The notes under the pieces are model-generated. The model saw nothing but the letters and a program-made list of their open reading frames with translations, had not been told where the DNA came from and made no database searches. A stretch of 6,593 nt of DNA from a virus (taxonomy: Duplodnaviria; Heunggongvirae; Uroviricota; Caudoviricetes): the IMG/VR virus record IMGVR_UViG_2541047119_000019, positions 1-6,593 of that record; one strand, given 5' to 3'. Each line of letters begins with the position of its first letter. The stretch's first letter is position 1. Of the stretch, positions 1,072 to 6,560 are shown in pieces. A program made the translations under genes and the position numbers.

Positions 1072-3111
1072 ATGACGTCCAAATGGGTTCAACTATCATC
1101 AATGCCCGGAAACTTTACTGTTAAAGTTTCCGGTGGTACAGCGGCATTTCTTGAGGCTCCCTTTCCTCCGGCCGAAACAAAAGGAGGAATGACATTTGCT
1201 GACTGTCTCATCAGTTTTAATACACGGGATTGCCTGTGGGTAAGGCCAGTATCCGGTGATCCGAGTGTGGAAATTACCGGAGCGGGTATTGGTGCGGTCA
1301 TTCCGTTAAGTGCTGATGTTGCCGGTACTGCTGAACCGTCAGACTGGGATAATGCTGAAACACATACCCGTCCGTCAGGAAATGAAACTGCTTCCAGCTC
1401 CCCTTCCTGGTATTACGTGGTGGTTCTTGCTGGTCAGTCAAACGGTATGGCTTACGGTGAAGGTCTGCCACTGCCGGAGACATATGACCGCCCCGAACCG
1501 CGTATTATGCAGTTAGCCCGTCGCAGTACAGTCACGCCGGGAGGTAAAGCCTGTCAGTATAACGACATCATTCTGGCCGACCACTGTCTGCATGATGTGC
1601 AGGATATGAGTGGAAAAAATCACCCGAAAGCGGATGTGGCTAAAGGGCAATATGGCACCGTGGGTCAGGGGCTTCACATTGCCAAAAAACTGCTGCCGTT
1701 TATTCCGGCAGATGCGGGGATTCTGCTGGTTCCCTGCTGCCGTGGTGGTTCTGCATTCACGGCGGGTGCTGACGGCACGTACAGTGACAGCACGGGTGCT
1801 TCAGAGGACTCAGCCCGCTGGGGTGTGGATAAGCCGCTGTATAAGGACTTAATCAGCCGGACAAAAGCGGCACTGGCGAAGAACCCGAAAAACCGCCTGC
1901 TTGCTGTGGTGTGGATGCAGGGCGAGTTTGATATTGATGCGAAGCCGACGGAGCATTCTGCGCTGTTTCTGGCGATGGTGGAAAAATTCCGCGCAGACCT
2001 GGCTGAACAGGCGGAACAGTGTACCGGTGGCAGTGCTGCTGGCGTTCCGTGGATTTGTGGCGATACCACGTATTTCTGGAAACAGAAAAATGAACCAGCA
2101 TACCAGGCAATCTATGGCGGCTACAAAAACAAAACAGATAAAAACATTCATTTCGTTCCATTAATGACAGATGAAAATGGCGTGAATGTACCCACCAACA
2201 ATCCGGCAGAAGACCCGGATATTGAATCCATTGGTTATTACGGCTCAACGTGGCGTAACAGTGCCGCTACCTGGACATCTGCGGACCGGGCCAGCCATTT
2301 CAGTGCCTGGGCGCGCCGGGGTATTATTTCTGACCGTCTGGCCACGGCTGTTCTGACTCATGCAGGGCGAACCACAGTAAAAGCCGATGTTCCATCTTCT
2401 GAAACTGAAGCACCAGTGCCGTCACCTTCAGAAACTGAAGCAGTAACCACAACACTGCTGTCTTACCGTGTCAGTGAGTCAGAAGGAAATCTGAAAGCCC
2501 AGGGCTGGGAGCCGGCTGGCGGTAAAGCTGAAATTATCAGTGATGCAGGAGGCACAGGTGGTAAGGCAATGAAACTGACCAAGGAAACAGGTAAATCATC
2601 CTGGTATCTGGATCATGATGCCGGTACTGGTGCTGAACTGCTGAAAAATGGTGGTTTAATCAGTTGTCGTTTTAAAGTACCTGGCGACCTGGTGGCAAAC
2701 CAGTATGTCATGGCGCTTTACTGGCCGGTTTCCTCTCTGCCGCAGGGTGTCACCCTGACAGGGGATGCAGGGAATAATCTGCTGGCATCGTTCTACATCC
2801 AGACAGACGCAAAAGACCTGAATGTGATGTACCACAATGCAAAAGTGGCAACAAATAACCAGAAACTGGGAACCTTTGGTGCATTTGATAATGAATGGCA
2901 TACGCTGGCCTTCCGTTTTGCAGGAAATAACAGCCTTCAGGTTATTCCGGTTATTGATGGTCAGGATGGTGCCGCGTTTACCCTGACGCAGTCACCAGTA
3001 GGAACTTTCCCGGTGGACAAACTCCGCGTAACGGATATCACCAAAAATGCAACTTACCCGGTGCTGATTGACAGCATTGTGGTGGAAGTGAAAAAAGCGG
3101 TAACAGAATAA
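1072..3111 (+). CDS. SASA/SGNH-family carbohydrate esterase (sialate O-acetylesterase-like, resembling prophage NanS-p), with Pro/Ser/Thr/Glu linker and C-terminal putative carbohydrate-binding domain
   Basis: 679-aa ORF. It carries the YYVVVLAGQSNGMAYGEG block (GQSN catalytic-serine motif of sialate O-acetylesterase / DUF303-type SGNH hydrolases), then CRGGS and VVWMQGEFD blocks. A repetitive SSETEAPVPSPSETEA linker separates a ~220-aa C-terminal domain. Start choice (ATG 1072 versus internal ATG 1102) is uncertain. Confidence 0.78.
   Translation: MTSKWVQLSSMPGNFTVKVSGGTAAFLEAPFPPAETKGGMTFADCLISFNTRDCLWVRPVSGDPSVEITGAGIGAVIPLSADVAGTAEPSDWDNAETHTRPSGNETASSSPSWYYVVVLAGQSNGMAYGEGLPLPETYDRPEPRIMQLARRSTVTPGGKACQYNDIILADHCLHDVQDMSGKNHPKADVAKGQYGTVGQGLHIAKKLLPFIPADAGILLVPCCRGGSAFTAGADGTYSDSTGASEDSARWGVDKPLYKDLISRTKAALAKNPKNRLLAVVWMQGEFDIDAKPTEHSALFLAMVEKFRADLAEQAEQCTGGSAAGVPWICGDTTYFWKQKNEPAYQAIYGGYKNKTDKNIHFVPLMTDENGVNVPTNNPAEDPDIESIGYYGSTWRNSAATWTSADRASHFSAWARRGIISDRLATAVLTHAGRTTVKADVPSSETEAPVPSPSETEAVTTTLLSYRVSESEGNLKAQGWEPAGGKAEIISDAGGTGGKAMKLTKETGKSSWYLDHDAGTGAELLKNGGLISCRFKVPGDLVANQYVMALYWPVSSLPQGVTLTGDAGNNLLASFYIQTDAKDLNVMYHNAKVATNNQKLGTFGAFDNEWHTLAFRFAGNNSLQVIPVIDGQDGAAFTLTQSPVGTFPVDKLRVTDITKNATYPVLIDSIVVEVKKAVTE
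2398..2442 (+). repeat. Short in-frame tandem-like direct repeat (TCTGAAACTGAAGCA / TCAGAAACTGAAGCA, 30-bp period) encoding the SETEA linker
   Basis: Two 15-bp copies at 2398-2412 and 2428-2442, 14/15 identical, read directly from the sequence inside the esterase ORF. Confidence 0.85.
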
Positions 3112-3117
3112 AAAAAT

Positions 3118-3144
3118 CCCGCCGGTCATGATATGGCTGGCGGG
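3118..3144. terminator. GC-rich hairpin just after the esterase stop; possible terminator, orientation ambiguous
   Basis: CCCGCCGG (3118-3125), 11-nt loop, CTGGCGGG (3137-3144): 8 bp with one G-U pair. An A6 run precedes it, which would be a U-tract on the minus strand. No U-tract follows on the plus strand. Confidence 0.35.
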
Positions 3145-3257
3145 AGCTACCTAACCCATAAAGGAAAATAAAAATACTCCCGAAGGAGTGGTTATCAGTC
3201 GCTTCGATGTTTTTACCCGATAACGAATTATGTAGTCAATATCAAAGGTAAGGTTAT

Positions 3258-3440
3258 ATGACATTCGTTCATACAATGCTGCTTTATTTCTGCGCTGTGG
3301 TCAGTGCGTTATATCTGGTGAGCGGCGGTTATAAGGTCATCAGAAATTATATTCGCCGTAAAATTGATGATGCGGCAGCTGAAAAACTCAGTAAAACAGC
3401 ACAGGCACCGTCATCCCCAAACGACCCGACCCCGCTCTGA
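3258..3440 (+). CDS. Small hypothetical membrane protein (60 aa, one predicted N-terminal TM helix followed by a basic segment)
   Basis: ATG 3258 is preceded by AAGGTAAGG (3245-3253). The hydrophobic stretch TMLLYFCAVVSALYLVSGGY is followed by KVIRNYIRRK. No family recognised. Confidence 0.55.
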   Translation: MTFVHTMLLYFCAVVSALYLVSGGYKVIRNYIRRKIDDAAAEKLSKTAQAPSSPNDPTPL

Positions 3441-3475
3441 TAACGGGGCAATATACCTGCAAAAGGAGAATATTC

Positions 3476-3721
3476 ATGCCAGAGATTAAAGGCACGGTTA
3501 CTGAAGAGCTTGTCAAACAGGCACTTTATTCTGAAGAAGTGAACCGCGTGCTGAAGGCGCAGGTTCGCAAGGATTTTGAGGCACAAATCGACGCATATGT
3601 TGATGAAGTGCTGGCCCGAATGGTTGGCCGTTCTCCGGCTGAAAACAGCACGGAAAATGATCCTCAACCCGTAGAGCAACCAGAGCCGGTTCAGCCCGGA
3701 ACTGACGGTACTATGATGTAA
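3476..3721 (+). CDS. Small hypothetical acidic protein (81 aa), predicted helical N-terminal half and Pro/Glu-rich tail
   Basis: ATG 3476 is preceded by a strong SD AAGGAG (3463-3468, 7-nt spacing). It lies 35 bp after the previous small ORF, suggesting a two-gene unit. No family recognised. Confidence 0.6.
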   Translation: MPEIKGTVTEELVKQALYSEEVNRVLKAQVRKDFEAQIDAYVDEVLARMVGRSPAENSTENDPQPVEQPEPVQPGTDGTMM

Positions 3722-3730
3722 CAATACCGA

Positions 3731-3750
3731 CCGGCAGGTTTCCCTGCCGG
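3731..3750 (+). terminator. Candidate intrinsic terminator after the small-ORF pair
   Basis: Perfect 8-bp stem CCGGCAGG / CCTGCCGG with 4-nt loop TTTC, followed by the T-rich GTGAGTTTGTTAATG. Confidence 0.5.
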
Positions 3751-4076
3751 GTGAGTTTGTTAATGCACGTTTTGTGTATTTTCCCTCCTGGGAGAACAGG
3801 CAGGACATATCAGCATCCTGAAACAGGAAGCATTTTTGGGTTTGTATGTCTTGCCATTTTGAGATCGAGAACGGCGATAGATGAGCTGTAAGGGAGTCTT
3901 ACAGGCAGGGCAAACAGGCTCTTTCATCCATGATAAAGATCTCCTTTTTATGCATCTCTGCTTTACAGGAGACTGGGGAATATCATAGGATACGCCACGA
4001 GCTCGAAGTAAAGCATTGATGCAAAATTGTCTAAATCGGCCCAGAATAGTTCGCGCTATCTGGGTCGCTCTTTATG

Positions 4077-4112
4077 TATGTAGTATCCCATTGATTTGAA
4101 ACATACTACATA
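4077..4112. promoter_or_regulatory. Perfect 10-bp inverted repeat (TATGTAGTAT-N16-ATACTACATA); candidate operator or structured element
   Basis: Arms at 4077-4086 and 4103-4112 are exact reverse complements, in the AT-rich non-coding region upstream of com-mom. Confidence 0.3.
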
Positions 4113-4147
4113 TACGCGCGATCCTACCTTCACTATATAAAAAGTCA

Positions 4148-4165
4148 ATAAAATGATCATTTTAT
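4148..4165. promoter_or_regulatory. 18-bp perfect palindrome centred on a Dam site (ATAAAATGATCATTTTAT); candidate methylation-sensitive regulator binding site
   Basis: Read directly; a second GATC lies 11 bp away at 4166-4169 and another at 4120-4123. Confidence 0.35.
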
Positions 4166-4272
4166 GATCGTTTTCACCACCTAACTCTTCGTTTTCTTTA
4201 AGTAAATAATCACCTACCTGAATCATTGTTGATGACTTTTCAATCTATTTGTTGTATCAATTAAACAAATCG

Positions 4273-4340: not shown

Positions 4341-4541
4341 ATGTATCGAAACATACGGTGCCGACACTGCAATAAGCTACTGGCACGGGCCAGTTTCAGT
4401 TATCTGGAAGTAAAATGTCCGCGCTGTAAAACCCTCAATCAAATCACATCTCCGAGCGCCACAGAGCACCCCACATACACAAGGAAATCCTGTCGTGGGG
4501 AACAGAAAGCAAGTCACATCCCGAATCATCAGCACGCCTGA
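4341..4541 (+). CDS. com: Com-like zinc-finger translational activator (phage Mu Com homologue)
   Basis: From ATG 4341 (SD AGGAGG 4324-4329) the 66-aa product is [34 protein letters not shown]...EHPT.... The two CxxC pairs and the IRC..CNKLL...CPRCK...EHPT pattern match my recollection of Mu Com. Its 3' end overlaps the next ORF out of frame, as com overlaps mom in Mu. The track start at TTG 4296 is rejected. Confidence 0.82.
4469..4500 (+). promoter_or_regulatory. mRNA stem-loop sequestering the predicted mom SD and GUG start (translation-inhibition-structure-like)
   Basis: CCCCAC (4469-4474) pairs with GTGGGG (4495-4500); the GTG is the predicted mom start. The 20-nt loop contains AAGGA (4481-4485). 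This is analogous to the Mu mom TIS that Com binding relieves. Confidence 0.5.
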
Positions 4542-5232
4542 ACTTATTCGCTATAACGACAATATCGTTGGTTATGGCTCCCGTGAGTTGCGGGTTGAGA
4601 CAATAAGTTGCTGGCTGGCCAGACTGGTCATCGTCAATAAACATTACAGCCACCGTTTCGTAAATAACTCCTACCTTCATCTGGGCATATTTTCAGAACG
4701 GGAACTTGTTGGCGTAATGCAATGGGGTTACGCCCTTAACCCAAACAGTGGTGCACGCGTCGTAACGGGTACGCAGAACCGAGAATATATGGAGCTTAAC
4801 CGGCTATGGCTGCATGACTGTATGCCGAGAAACTCCGAATCAAGGGCAATCAGTTACGCGCTCAAGCTAATCAGGCAGCTTTATCCGCAGGTACAGTGGG
4901 TTCAGTCGTTTGCAGATGAGCGTTGTGGCTGTCTTGGTGTCGTGTATCAGGCAAGCAATTTTGATTATGTAGGCAGCCATGAATCAATATTCTATGAACT
5001 TGATGGCGAGTGGTATCACGAGATTTGCAGGAATGCCATTAAACGAGGCGGACAACGAGGTGAACATCTGAGGGCTAATATTGACAGAGCCAATGTTCAT
5101 AAGTTCCGACAGTTTCGTTACATCCGGTTTCTGAACAAGAGGGCCAAAAAACGCCTCAACACAAAGCTATTCAAAGTCCAGCCTTACCCAAAACCACAAA
5201 CAGTTAAAACTGGTTTGAAAGAGAGTGAATGA
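4495..5232 (+). CDS. mom: Mom-like DNA modification protein (phage Mu Mom homologue; adenine N6-methylcarbamoyl/acetamido modification, anti-restriction)
   Basis: 245-aa ORF immediately downstream of and overlapping the com-like gene (4495-4541) in another frame. GTG 4495 is the first start codon after the frame opens at 4414, with AAGGA 9 nt upstream. Size is close to Mu Mom. The call rests mainly on synteny with the clearly Com-like gene; the Mom sequence was not matched from memory. Confidence 0.75.
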
Positions 5233-5411: not shown

Positions 5412-6560
5412 ATGAGGCGCTTCGCAGGCGCATGTCGTTTCGTTTTCAATCGTGCTCTGGCGCTTCAGAATGAGAATCATGAGGCCGGTAATAAATACAT
5501 CCCTTACGGGAAAATGGCTTCCTGGCTGGTTGAGTGGAAAAACGCCACTGAAACGCAATGGCTTAAAGATGCCCCGTCACAGCCATTGCAACAGTCACTG
5601 AAAGAGCTTGAGCGGGCTTACAAAAACTTCTTCCGGAAGCGGGCTGCTTTTCCCCGATTCAAAAAGCGGGGACAGAATGATGCATTCCGCTACCCGCAGG
5701 GCGTTAAGCTCGATCAGGAAAACAGCCGTATTTTTCTGCCGAAACTTGGCTGGATGCGCTACCGGAACAGCCGTCAGGTCACGGGTGTTGTGAAAAATGT
5801 CACTGTCAGCCAGTCCTGCGGTAAGTGGTACATCAGTATTCAGACAGAAAGTGAAGTATCAACTCCGGTTCACCCTTCAGCATCAATGGTCGGACTGGAT
5901 GCTGGCGTGGCTAAACTCGCCACGCTGTCAGATGGCACAGTCTTTGGACCTGTAAACAGTTTTCAGAAAAACCAGAAGACGCTGGCGAGACTTCAGCGAC
6001 AGTTAAGCCGCAAGGTCAAATTCAGCAACAACTGGCAGAAGCAGAAACGCAAAATACAGCGACTGCATTCCTGTATCGCAAATATCCGCAGGGACTACCT
6101 TCACAAAGTCACAACGACCGTCAGCAAAAACCACGCAATGATAGTCATTGAGGATTTGAAGGTCAGCAACATGTCAAAGTCAGCAGCGGGTACGGTCAGC
6201 CAGCCGGGGCGCAATGTCCGGGCAAAATCAGGTTTAAACCGTTCGATACTGGATCAGGGCTGGTATGAAATGCGCCGCCAGCTTGAGTACAAGCAGCTCT
6301 GGCGTGGCGGTCAGGTGCTTGCTGTTCCGCCAGCGTACACAAGCCAGCGTTGCGCGTGCTGTGGTCATACAGCGAAAGAAAATCGCCTGTCACAAAGTAA
6401 ATTCAGATGCCAGGCATGTGGATATACAGCGAACGCTGATGTAAATGGCGCTCGTAACATTTTAGCGGCGGGGCACGCCGTTCTTGCCTGTGGGGAGATG
6501 GTGCAGTCAGGCCGCCCGTTGAAGCAGGAACCCACCGAAATGATTCAGGCGACAGCCTGA
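5412..6560 (+). CDS. tnpB: TnpB (OrfB) of an IS200/IS605-family element; RuvC-like RNA-guided endonuclease fold with zinc ribbon
   Basis: 382-aa ORF with SD AGGAG (5401-5405). RuvC-like motifs are present: VGLDAGV (D), IVIEDLKV (E) and [10 protein letters not shown] (D), plus zinc ribbon CACCGH...CQACGY. The in-frame upstream translation (ILQAFKFQLRPGGQQERE, 5358-5411) looks like the conserved TnpB N-terminus but has no ATG/GTG/TTG after the stop at 5322-5324. Confidence 0.9.

Follow-up and report, generated by a model that had tools for sequence, protein, structure and literature searches.

Cytoplasmic or membrane antiholins such as T4 RIII, P1 LydB and S21-71 are small regulators encoded in lysis cassettes and acting on the cytoplasmic side of the inner membrane; we know of no sequence relationship between them and the DUF1378 and DUF826 families considered here. 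The Mu releasin gp25, encoded downstream of the endolysin gene and within 5 genes of it, promotes SAR endolysin release (PMC9239132). An N-terminal transmembrane domain tethers it to the membrane in an N-out/C-in orientation; four of its residues are periplasmic, a basic motif marks the membrane-cytoplasm junction, and the cytoplasmic domain is anionic (PMC9239132). ORFs of the DUF1378 and DUF826 families have been located between nanS-p and S in Stx phages (PMC10462455), the one passing mention that our literature search on the two families returned; it returned no experiment on either. The neighboring NanS-p of phi24B (gp84) is a virion capsid-decoration protein, the N-terminal DUF1737 domain of which binds the capsid (bioRxiv 10.64898/2026.04.10.717836).

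We analyzed a stretch of 6,593 nucleotides (the 6.6-kb window), which forms the right end of a Mu-like E. coli prophage. Its genes are arranged in the order gin, nanS-p-like, DUF1378, DUF826, com/mom and IS605 tnpB, the DUF1378 and DUF826 genes being called ORF1 and ORF2 below. The features of the window are as follows.

412-972: gin, Gin-type invertase
1072-3111, plus strand: NanS-p-like sialate O-acetylesterase of 679 aa, with a SASA domain and a C-terminal DUF6645 domain
3117-3145, plus strand: upstream hairpin just past the nanS-p stop codon, 13-bp stem, -23.2 kcal/mol, z -6.4
3244-3253, plus strand: Shine-Dalgarno (SD) region of ORF1, AAAGGTAAGG, anti-SD duplex -6.6 kcal/mol
3258-3440, plus strand: ORF1, DUF1378 family (PF07125, phrog_494), 60 aa, ATG start
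3463-3468, plus strand: SD site of ORF2, AAGGAG, 7 nt 5' of the ATG, anti-SD duplex -8.7 kcal/mol
3476-3721, plus strand: ORF2, DUF826 (PF05696, phrog_311), 81 aa
3731-3750, plus strand: core of the downstream hairpin, 3' of ORF2, with a weakly T-rich tail, -22.1 kcal/mol, z -4.2
4341-4541: com
4495-5232: mom
5412-6560: IS605-family tnpB, its frame open upstream to about 5340

ORF1 and ORF2 are, with near certainty, genuine DUF1378 and DUF826 phage genes. ORF1 matches PF07125 over residues 1-59 (positions 1-59 of the 59-position model; 131.5 bits, E 1.2e-38) and ORF2 matches PF05696 over residues 1-52 (56.7 bits, E 2.8e-15), the curated gathering threshold for membership being 25 bits in each family. 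Both also match PHROGs families labeled 'unknown function', phrog_494 (E 3.5e-34) and phrog_311 (E 6.6e-30), respectively. As the proteins belong to catalogued families and are identical to RefSeq WP_000144787.1 ('DUF1378 family protein') and WP_001114104.1 ('DUF826 domain-containing protein'), the pair is already known and ordinary in this respect; the initial annotation had not recognized either protein. Its description of two small ORFs with good SD sites, 35 nt apart and lying between hairpins, proved accurate, the spacer being exactly 35 nt. No match to holin families was found for either ORF in Pfam or PHROGs. Sequence searches of the PDB gave no match for ORF1 and, for DUF826, a best match to 'N37' at E 0.18; Foldseek searches with the DUF826 model gave no match in the PDB and a best E of 3.5 in BFVD. 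A 153-aa minus-strand ORF that overlaps the pair (3347-3808) was set aside because selection acts on the plus-strand frames.

ORF1 contains a single hydrophobic segment, with a peak of 2.02 at residues 3-21 in a 19-aa Kyte-Doolittle window. The N-tail comprises 5 residues, and the hydrophobic segment is followed by a basic juxtamembrane part (residues 25-36, YKVIRNYIRRKI, net charge +5) that includes RRK at positions 33-35. The protein has a pI of 9.3 and an overall net charge of +3, and its tail after residue 36 carries merely -2. With net charges of 0 on the N flank and +5 on the C flank (0 and +3 to +5 across DUF1378 proteins), the positive-inside rule favors a predicted single-pass inner-membrane protein of N-out/C-in topology. 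AF2 modeled it as one long helix spanning residues 2-49. ORF2 is highly acidic, with a pI of 4.34, 16 D/E against 8 K/R and a net charge of -8 (-3 to -13 among DUF826 proteins), and no hydrophobic segment was found in it. Its AF2 model shows a short helix at residues 10-17 and a long one at 20-50 (pLDDT above 90), followed by an acidic, Pro-rich, disordered tail (pLDDT below 50) that ends in hydrophobic residues. This bears out the earlier portrayal of a tightly linked pair, which looks translated and in which a 60-aa protein with one hydrophobic helix and a basic juxtamembrane segment adjoins an 81-aa highly acidic helical protein.

Both hairpins are unusually stable for their composition, as none of 200 shuffled sequences was as stable as the native one in either case. 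An A-run precedes the upstream hairpin and no U-run follows it, so that it is not a canonical intrinsic terminator on the plus strand; a terminator that serves the opposite strand would have this orientation. Mu-like, lambdoid and P2-like loci share its stem, with compensatory changes. Between this hairpin and the DUF1378 start lie two conserved motifs, TTTTT and TGTCAA. A promoter scan revealed no sigma-70-like promoter in front of ORF1.

Conservation of the pair was analyzed in 80 related IMG/VR loci of the E. coli type, comprising 28 distinct DUF1378 and 37 distinct DUF826 proteins. Homologues of ORF1 and ORF2 are intact in nearly all of these loci, separated by 19 to 40 nt, and nanS-p precedes DUF1378 in nearly all of them, except at contig ends. 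Pairwise NG86 dN/dS values are 0.20 for DUF1378 (transmembrane part, 0.15; juxtamembrane helix, 0.15; tail, 0.65) and 0.28 for DUF826 (helical N-terminal part, 0.23; tail, 0.36), so that both are under purifying selection. The conserved core of DUF1378 comprises residues 1-35, i.e., an N-tail of about 5 residues, a strongly conserved transmembrane helix that ends in an (S/A)GG-aromatic motif, and a basic juxtamembrane helix; L9, Y10, F11, V15, Y19, L20, G23, G24, Y25 and R29 are invariant. The family is rare, an exhaustive HMMER search of 1.84 billion proteins yielding 27 cluster representatives. Most of its distant members are long forms of 80 to 91 aa with a helical, A/E/K-rich C-terminal extension, which are homologous to the short forms over residues 1-35 only (hhalign probability, 99%). 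The idea that DUF826 is the split-off C-terminal domain of these long forms was rejected (hhalign probability, 8.8%).

Several database entries for these families are misleading. Three proteins that appear to fuse DUF1378 to DUF826 (P0140, P0163 and P0169), each in a single-member cluster, are frameshift artefacts that join the initial 38 residues of DUF1378 to an out-of-frame stretch upstream of DUF826; the open frame in that position yields such spurious 'fusion' proteins (P0140 and P0163). Another such fusion (locus L169) stems from a visibly degraded locus. An apparent DUF826-NanS-p fusion in three loci (L041, L049 and L060; about 6221-6680 in L041) has its parts in different frames: DUF826 ends after residue 53, and an out-of-frame, diverged copy of the NanS-p C-terminal jelly roll follows. 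It has the look of a recombination scar left by a second nanS-p-type cassette. In 933W, L0106 (locus L002, 5308-5754; 148 aa, GTG start) is over-long, and only its last 90 codons represent the real DUF826; it overlaps, in another frame, a DUF1378 gene that is not annotated. In the PhiR12 and PhiR5 records (locus L003, 4887-5291), the same over-long ORF is labeled 'head completion protein'.

The trio nanS-p, DUF1378 and DUF826 keeps this order in two unrelated backbones among the 80 loci. In Mu-like prophages it lies between gin and com/mom, and in lambdoid and Stx phages it follows Q and stx where these are present and directly precedes the pinholin gene S and the SAR endolysin gene R. The Stx phage 933W has the same three genes in the same order and spacing as the window, including the hairpin after nanS-p, with about 52% identity for DUF1378 and 37 to 45% for DUF826, but its cassette is placed between stx and the pinholin gene whereas that of the window is flanked by gin and com/mom of a Mu-like prophage. 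A P2-like phage shows the order holin, SAR endolysin, Rz/Rz1, nanS-p, DUF1378 and tail genes, without DUF826. Four further loci (L127-L130) carry gin, nanS-p and DUF1378 but no DUF826, and minus-strand genes directly follow DUF1378. The esterase of the window (SASA, E 6.6e-12; DUF6645, E 4e-70) is 74% identical to 933W L0105 over 89 to 93% of its length. Unlike NanS-p of phi24B, it does not have the capsid-binding DUF1737 N-domain; about 110 aa of a different kind form its N-terminal region instead, which could mean a different mode of attachment to the virion, or none.

The constant nanS-p-DUF1378 order and the intergenic hairpin shared by lambdoid, Mu-like and P2-like backbones could indicate that the pair assists NanS-p, in folding, membrane targeting, release or capsid assembly of the esterase. 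The decoration of the phi24B capsid by NanS-p and the 'head completion protein' label of DUF826 in some records point the same way. That label, however, has no support from Pfam or PHROGs, and most of the distant DUF1378 genes described below, as well as one distant DUF1378-DUF826 pair (L091), occur without nanS-p. Moreover, the main text and one supplementary file of the phi24B virion paper make no mention of DUF826, DUF1378, gp85 or gp86, and cited literature describes recombinant NanS-p as active alone. We regard an accessory role for NanS-p as quite improbable.

The region 3100-3800 of the window is 100% identical to prophages of E. coli O157:H7 and other STEC and is present in 212 of 5426 complete genomes. 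The DUF1378-DUF826 pair is found in 1052 of the 5426 complete E. coli genomes (about 19%), often as several copies, with up to 7 per genome; a scan of species-representative genomes yielded a single locus, from Cedecea. In the Mu-like prophage, the nanS-p/DUF1378/DUF826 cassette behaves as imported cargo between gin and com/mom. A complete lysis cassette of the Mu type, with genes for SAR lysozyme, Rz, LysC and a releasin homologue (DUF2730), belongs to the prophage itself and lies about 25 kb upstream of the pair. When Mu-like backbones are considered alone, dN/dS is 0.24 for DUF1378 and 0.18 for DUF826, selection being equally strong there. As purifying selection thus acts on the pair far from lysis genes, its function cannot depend on placement in a lysis cassette.

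Other observations concern the right part of the window. The tnpB gene, directly 3' of mom, encodes OrfB_IS605, Cas12f1-like TNB and partial HTH_OrfB domains, and no tnpA is visible within the window. An otherwise identical prophage in NZ_CP066756 (L001) is devoid of the tnpB element and continues straight to a sulfatase pseudogene. Between the pair and com, the minus-strand stretch 3760-4226 contains two short ORFs, one of which, of 55 aa, has a CPAC...CPAC pattern and a sub-threshold Trm112p-like match (E 0.005). This stretch is probably a decayed gene, since RefSeq lists a frameshifted hypothetical protein there.

This setting bears on a second explanation, namely that the pair is lysogenic-conversion cargo, expressed from the prophage (e.g., by read-through from gin or nanS-p) and altering the host inner membrane independently of lysis, to the advantage of the lysogen, by way of superinfection exclusion, phage defense or another fitness trait. 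The pair stands where morons are classically found, at the end of the genome, between hairpins and far from lysis genes, and purifying selection on it persists there; it travels with nanS-p, which has been treated as a fitness gene of the lysogen (PMC10462455), and it reaches multiple copies per genome. Nevertheless, no promoter was detected upstream, no match to defense or exclusion families was obtained, and in lambdoid phages the pair lies within the Q-dependent late transcript, just before S. In distant relatives, DUF1378 is translationally coupled to spanin genes (see below), which indicates expression at the time of lysis and not in the lysogen. We consider this explanation unlikely. Of the ideas put forward in the initial annotation, that of a phage moron is retained as far as imported cargo between gin and com/mom is concerned, but the family-wide context points to lysis cassettes; that of a superinfection-exclusion factor gained nothing from PADLOC, Pfam and NCBIfam, which gave no exclusion-family match, or from the promoter scan.

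A second scan of IMG/VR yielded 41 distinct DUF1378 contexts that are not of the E. coli type. Lysis genes are found at most three genes upstream or at most two genes downstream of DUF1378 in 38 of them, and Rz/Rz1 occupies position -1 or -2 in 33. In the 27 contexts with a spanin gene (Rz/Rz1) at -1, the DUF1378 ATG overlaps the spanin stop codon by 4 nt in 22. Contigs that encode the distant cluster representatives of the HMMER search all contain lysis cassettes, with the following gene orders.

Phage BUCT709: pinholin, SAR lysozyme, Rz/Rz1, DUF1378
Distant locus: holin, lysozyme, DUF2570, LysC, DUF1378
Distant locus: muramidase, DUF7940, Rz, DUF1378
Distant locus: u-spanin, pinholin, lysozyme, DUF1378
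Distant locus: lysozyme, DUF1378, Rz
Loci L091 and L092: Q, lambda-type holin, lysozyme, DUF7940, Rz, DUF1378, DUF826, without nanS-p
Phage EKP1: DUF1378 in a lysis cassette

In the wider family, DUF1378 is thus almost always the last gene of a lysis cassette composed of holin, endolysin, Rz/Rz1 and DUF1378. The DUF826 protein of L091 and L092 (Pfam E 2.6e-15) represents the one instance of this family among distant contexts without nanS-p, and an IMG/VR scan with the L091 protein as the query found nothing. A SAR-like N-terminal segment, uncharged and Gly/Ala-rich, is present in 31 of the 33 distinct neighboring endolysins, a raw count that ignores kinship and the background rate. These SAR-like endolysins belong to at least four sequence types, and R of 933W and the lysozyme of the window's prophage are of the SAR type as well; two DUF1378-containing cassettes encode soluble endolysins. 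The holins beside DUF1378 are of at least four unrelated types. The pair would resemble antiholins as small, lysis-cassette-encoded regulators acting on the cytoplasmic side of the inner membrane, but this diversity of holins argues against a holin-specific antiholin. We found no published description of DUF1378 at the end of lysis cassettes, of its coupling to spanins or of its association with SAR endolysins. As a side observation, OM816835 (L004) and OM284015 (L093), two records named as Stenotrophomonas and Elizabethkingia phages, closely resemble enterobacterial phages in their lysis cassettes (S21-type or class II holin, R21-like SAR lysozyme, Rz), and it may be worth checking the hosts given for them.

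In about 39 of the 41 distant contexts and in five other loci (L075 and L127-L130), DUF1378 has no DUF826 beside it, which is hard to square with an unneutralized toxin. The initial annotation had proposed a small membrane-acting toxin and its partner. Such a toxin-antitoxin or abortive-infection module, with ORF1 as the membrane toxin and ORF2 as the acidic neutralizer, would fit two tightly linked small genes for a basic membrane peptide and an acidic protein; the disordered tail of ORF2, with its hydrophobic end, could be a degron, and wherever DUF826 was seen among the loci analyzed it immediately followed DUF1378, never occurring without it. Against this, searches with PADLOC, Pfam and NCBIfam revealed no likeness to known toxin, antitoxin or defense families, the pair has no promoter of its own, the putative toxin gene is the upstream one, and the pair always lies in phage late or lysis regions. 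We judge such a module to be highly implausible. Because their distant relatives almost always end lysis clusters, the two proteins are more probably lysis helpers than a toxin with its antidote.

The reading that we favor, with a rough probability of 40%, is that the pair constitutes a membrane tether and its acidic cytoplasmic partner, which would serve as a lysis accessory and, in the window, would be displaced cargo. This reading takes DUF1378 as the core component and DUF826 as an add-on partner. Judging from charge distribution, DUF1378 would insert with its N terminus out and its C terminus in, and the acidic amphipathic helix of DUF826 would bind the basic amphipathic cytoplasmic helix of DUF1378, giving rise to a membrane-tethered anionic cytoplasmic module. 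This module would tune lysis late in infection, from the cytoplasmic side of the inner membrane. Most likely, it would help SAR endolysins to leave the membrane or set the time at which they do so, in the manner of Mu gp25; alternatively, it might modulate pinholin triggering. As to its origin, nanS-p was probably inserted beside DUF1378 in an ancestor, after which the unit moved between phage backbones; the P2-like locus suggests that this insertion took place between the spanin genes and DUF1378.

The comparison with Mu gp25, whose architecture the proposed module would closely resemble, rests on several likenesses. Like gp25, DUF1378 is a small protein with an N-terminal transmembrane domain, and it is predicted to resemble gp25 in having an N-out/C-in topology with about 4 to 5 periplasmic residues and in having anionic helical material on the cytoplasmic side. 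Like gp25, DUF1378 relatives are encoded a few genes downstream of an endolysin, mostly of the SAR type. A motif of the form (A/S)GG-aromatic-basic is present where the N-terminal transmembrane domain meets the cytoplasm in gp25 (LPVVAGGAVWAMRR; locus L171, 2219-2518) and in DUF1378 proteins (LIAGGWVKIR, LVSGGYKVIR), which may reflect convergence on a common mechanism. No homology to gp25 was detected (hhalign probability, 0.1 to 0.2%), and no DUF2730 Pfam match was obtained at E values up to 1, so that the likeness to releasins is one of analogy and not of family membership.

The two systems also differ. Whereas gp25 carries its anionic domain on the same polypeptide, the DUF1378 systems have theirs in a separate protein, DUF826, or in an A/E/K-rich extension; ORF1 itself does not have an anionic cytoplasmic domain, and ORF2 would act in trans. 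In the window the pair is not near an endolysin gene, the lysozyme gene being about 25 kb away, and phages with DUF1378 usually also have a holin or pinholin. In the window's prophage, a DUF2730 gene is present besides the DUF1378-DUF826 pair. That this prophage already has a releasin homologue of its own, and that the pair lies so far from its lysis genes, count against a role in lysis, as do the two cassettes with soluble endolysins and the fact that the tightest neighbor of the pair in E. coli is nanS-p and no lysis gene.

A broader proposal is that DUF1378 defines a class of lysis-cassette genes that has gone unrecognized, encoding a spanin-coupled, membrane-tethered cytoplasmic factor in control of SAR endolysin escape or pinholin triggering; we put it forward tentatively, as a possibility that is open to considerable doubt. 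Within such a class, DUF1378 might function by itself, might be fused to an A/E/K-rich helix or might work together with the separate acidic protein DUF826. The context statistics turn the 'unknown function' of DUF1378 and DUF826 into a concrete, testable hypothesis. If the proposal is true, DUF1378 would be another 'releasin-like' solution, the second one, without sequence kinship to the first, and would be found in Stx phages as well as in about a fifth of E. coli genomes. If the pair tunes lysis by the pinholin/SAR-endolysin route, it would add a new component to the textbook scheme of holin, endolysin and spanin. In Stx phages, the pair is part of the late transcript between stx/nanS-p and the pinholin gene, and DUF1378, if the proposal holds, could modulate when Shiga toxin and NanS-p are released. 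By tuning lysis through this route, the pair would affect both the time and the completeness of the release of Shiga toxin, NanS-p and phage.
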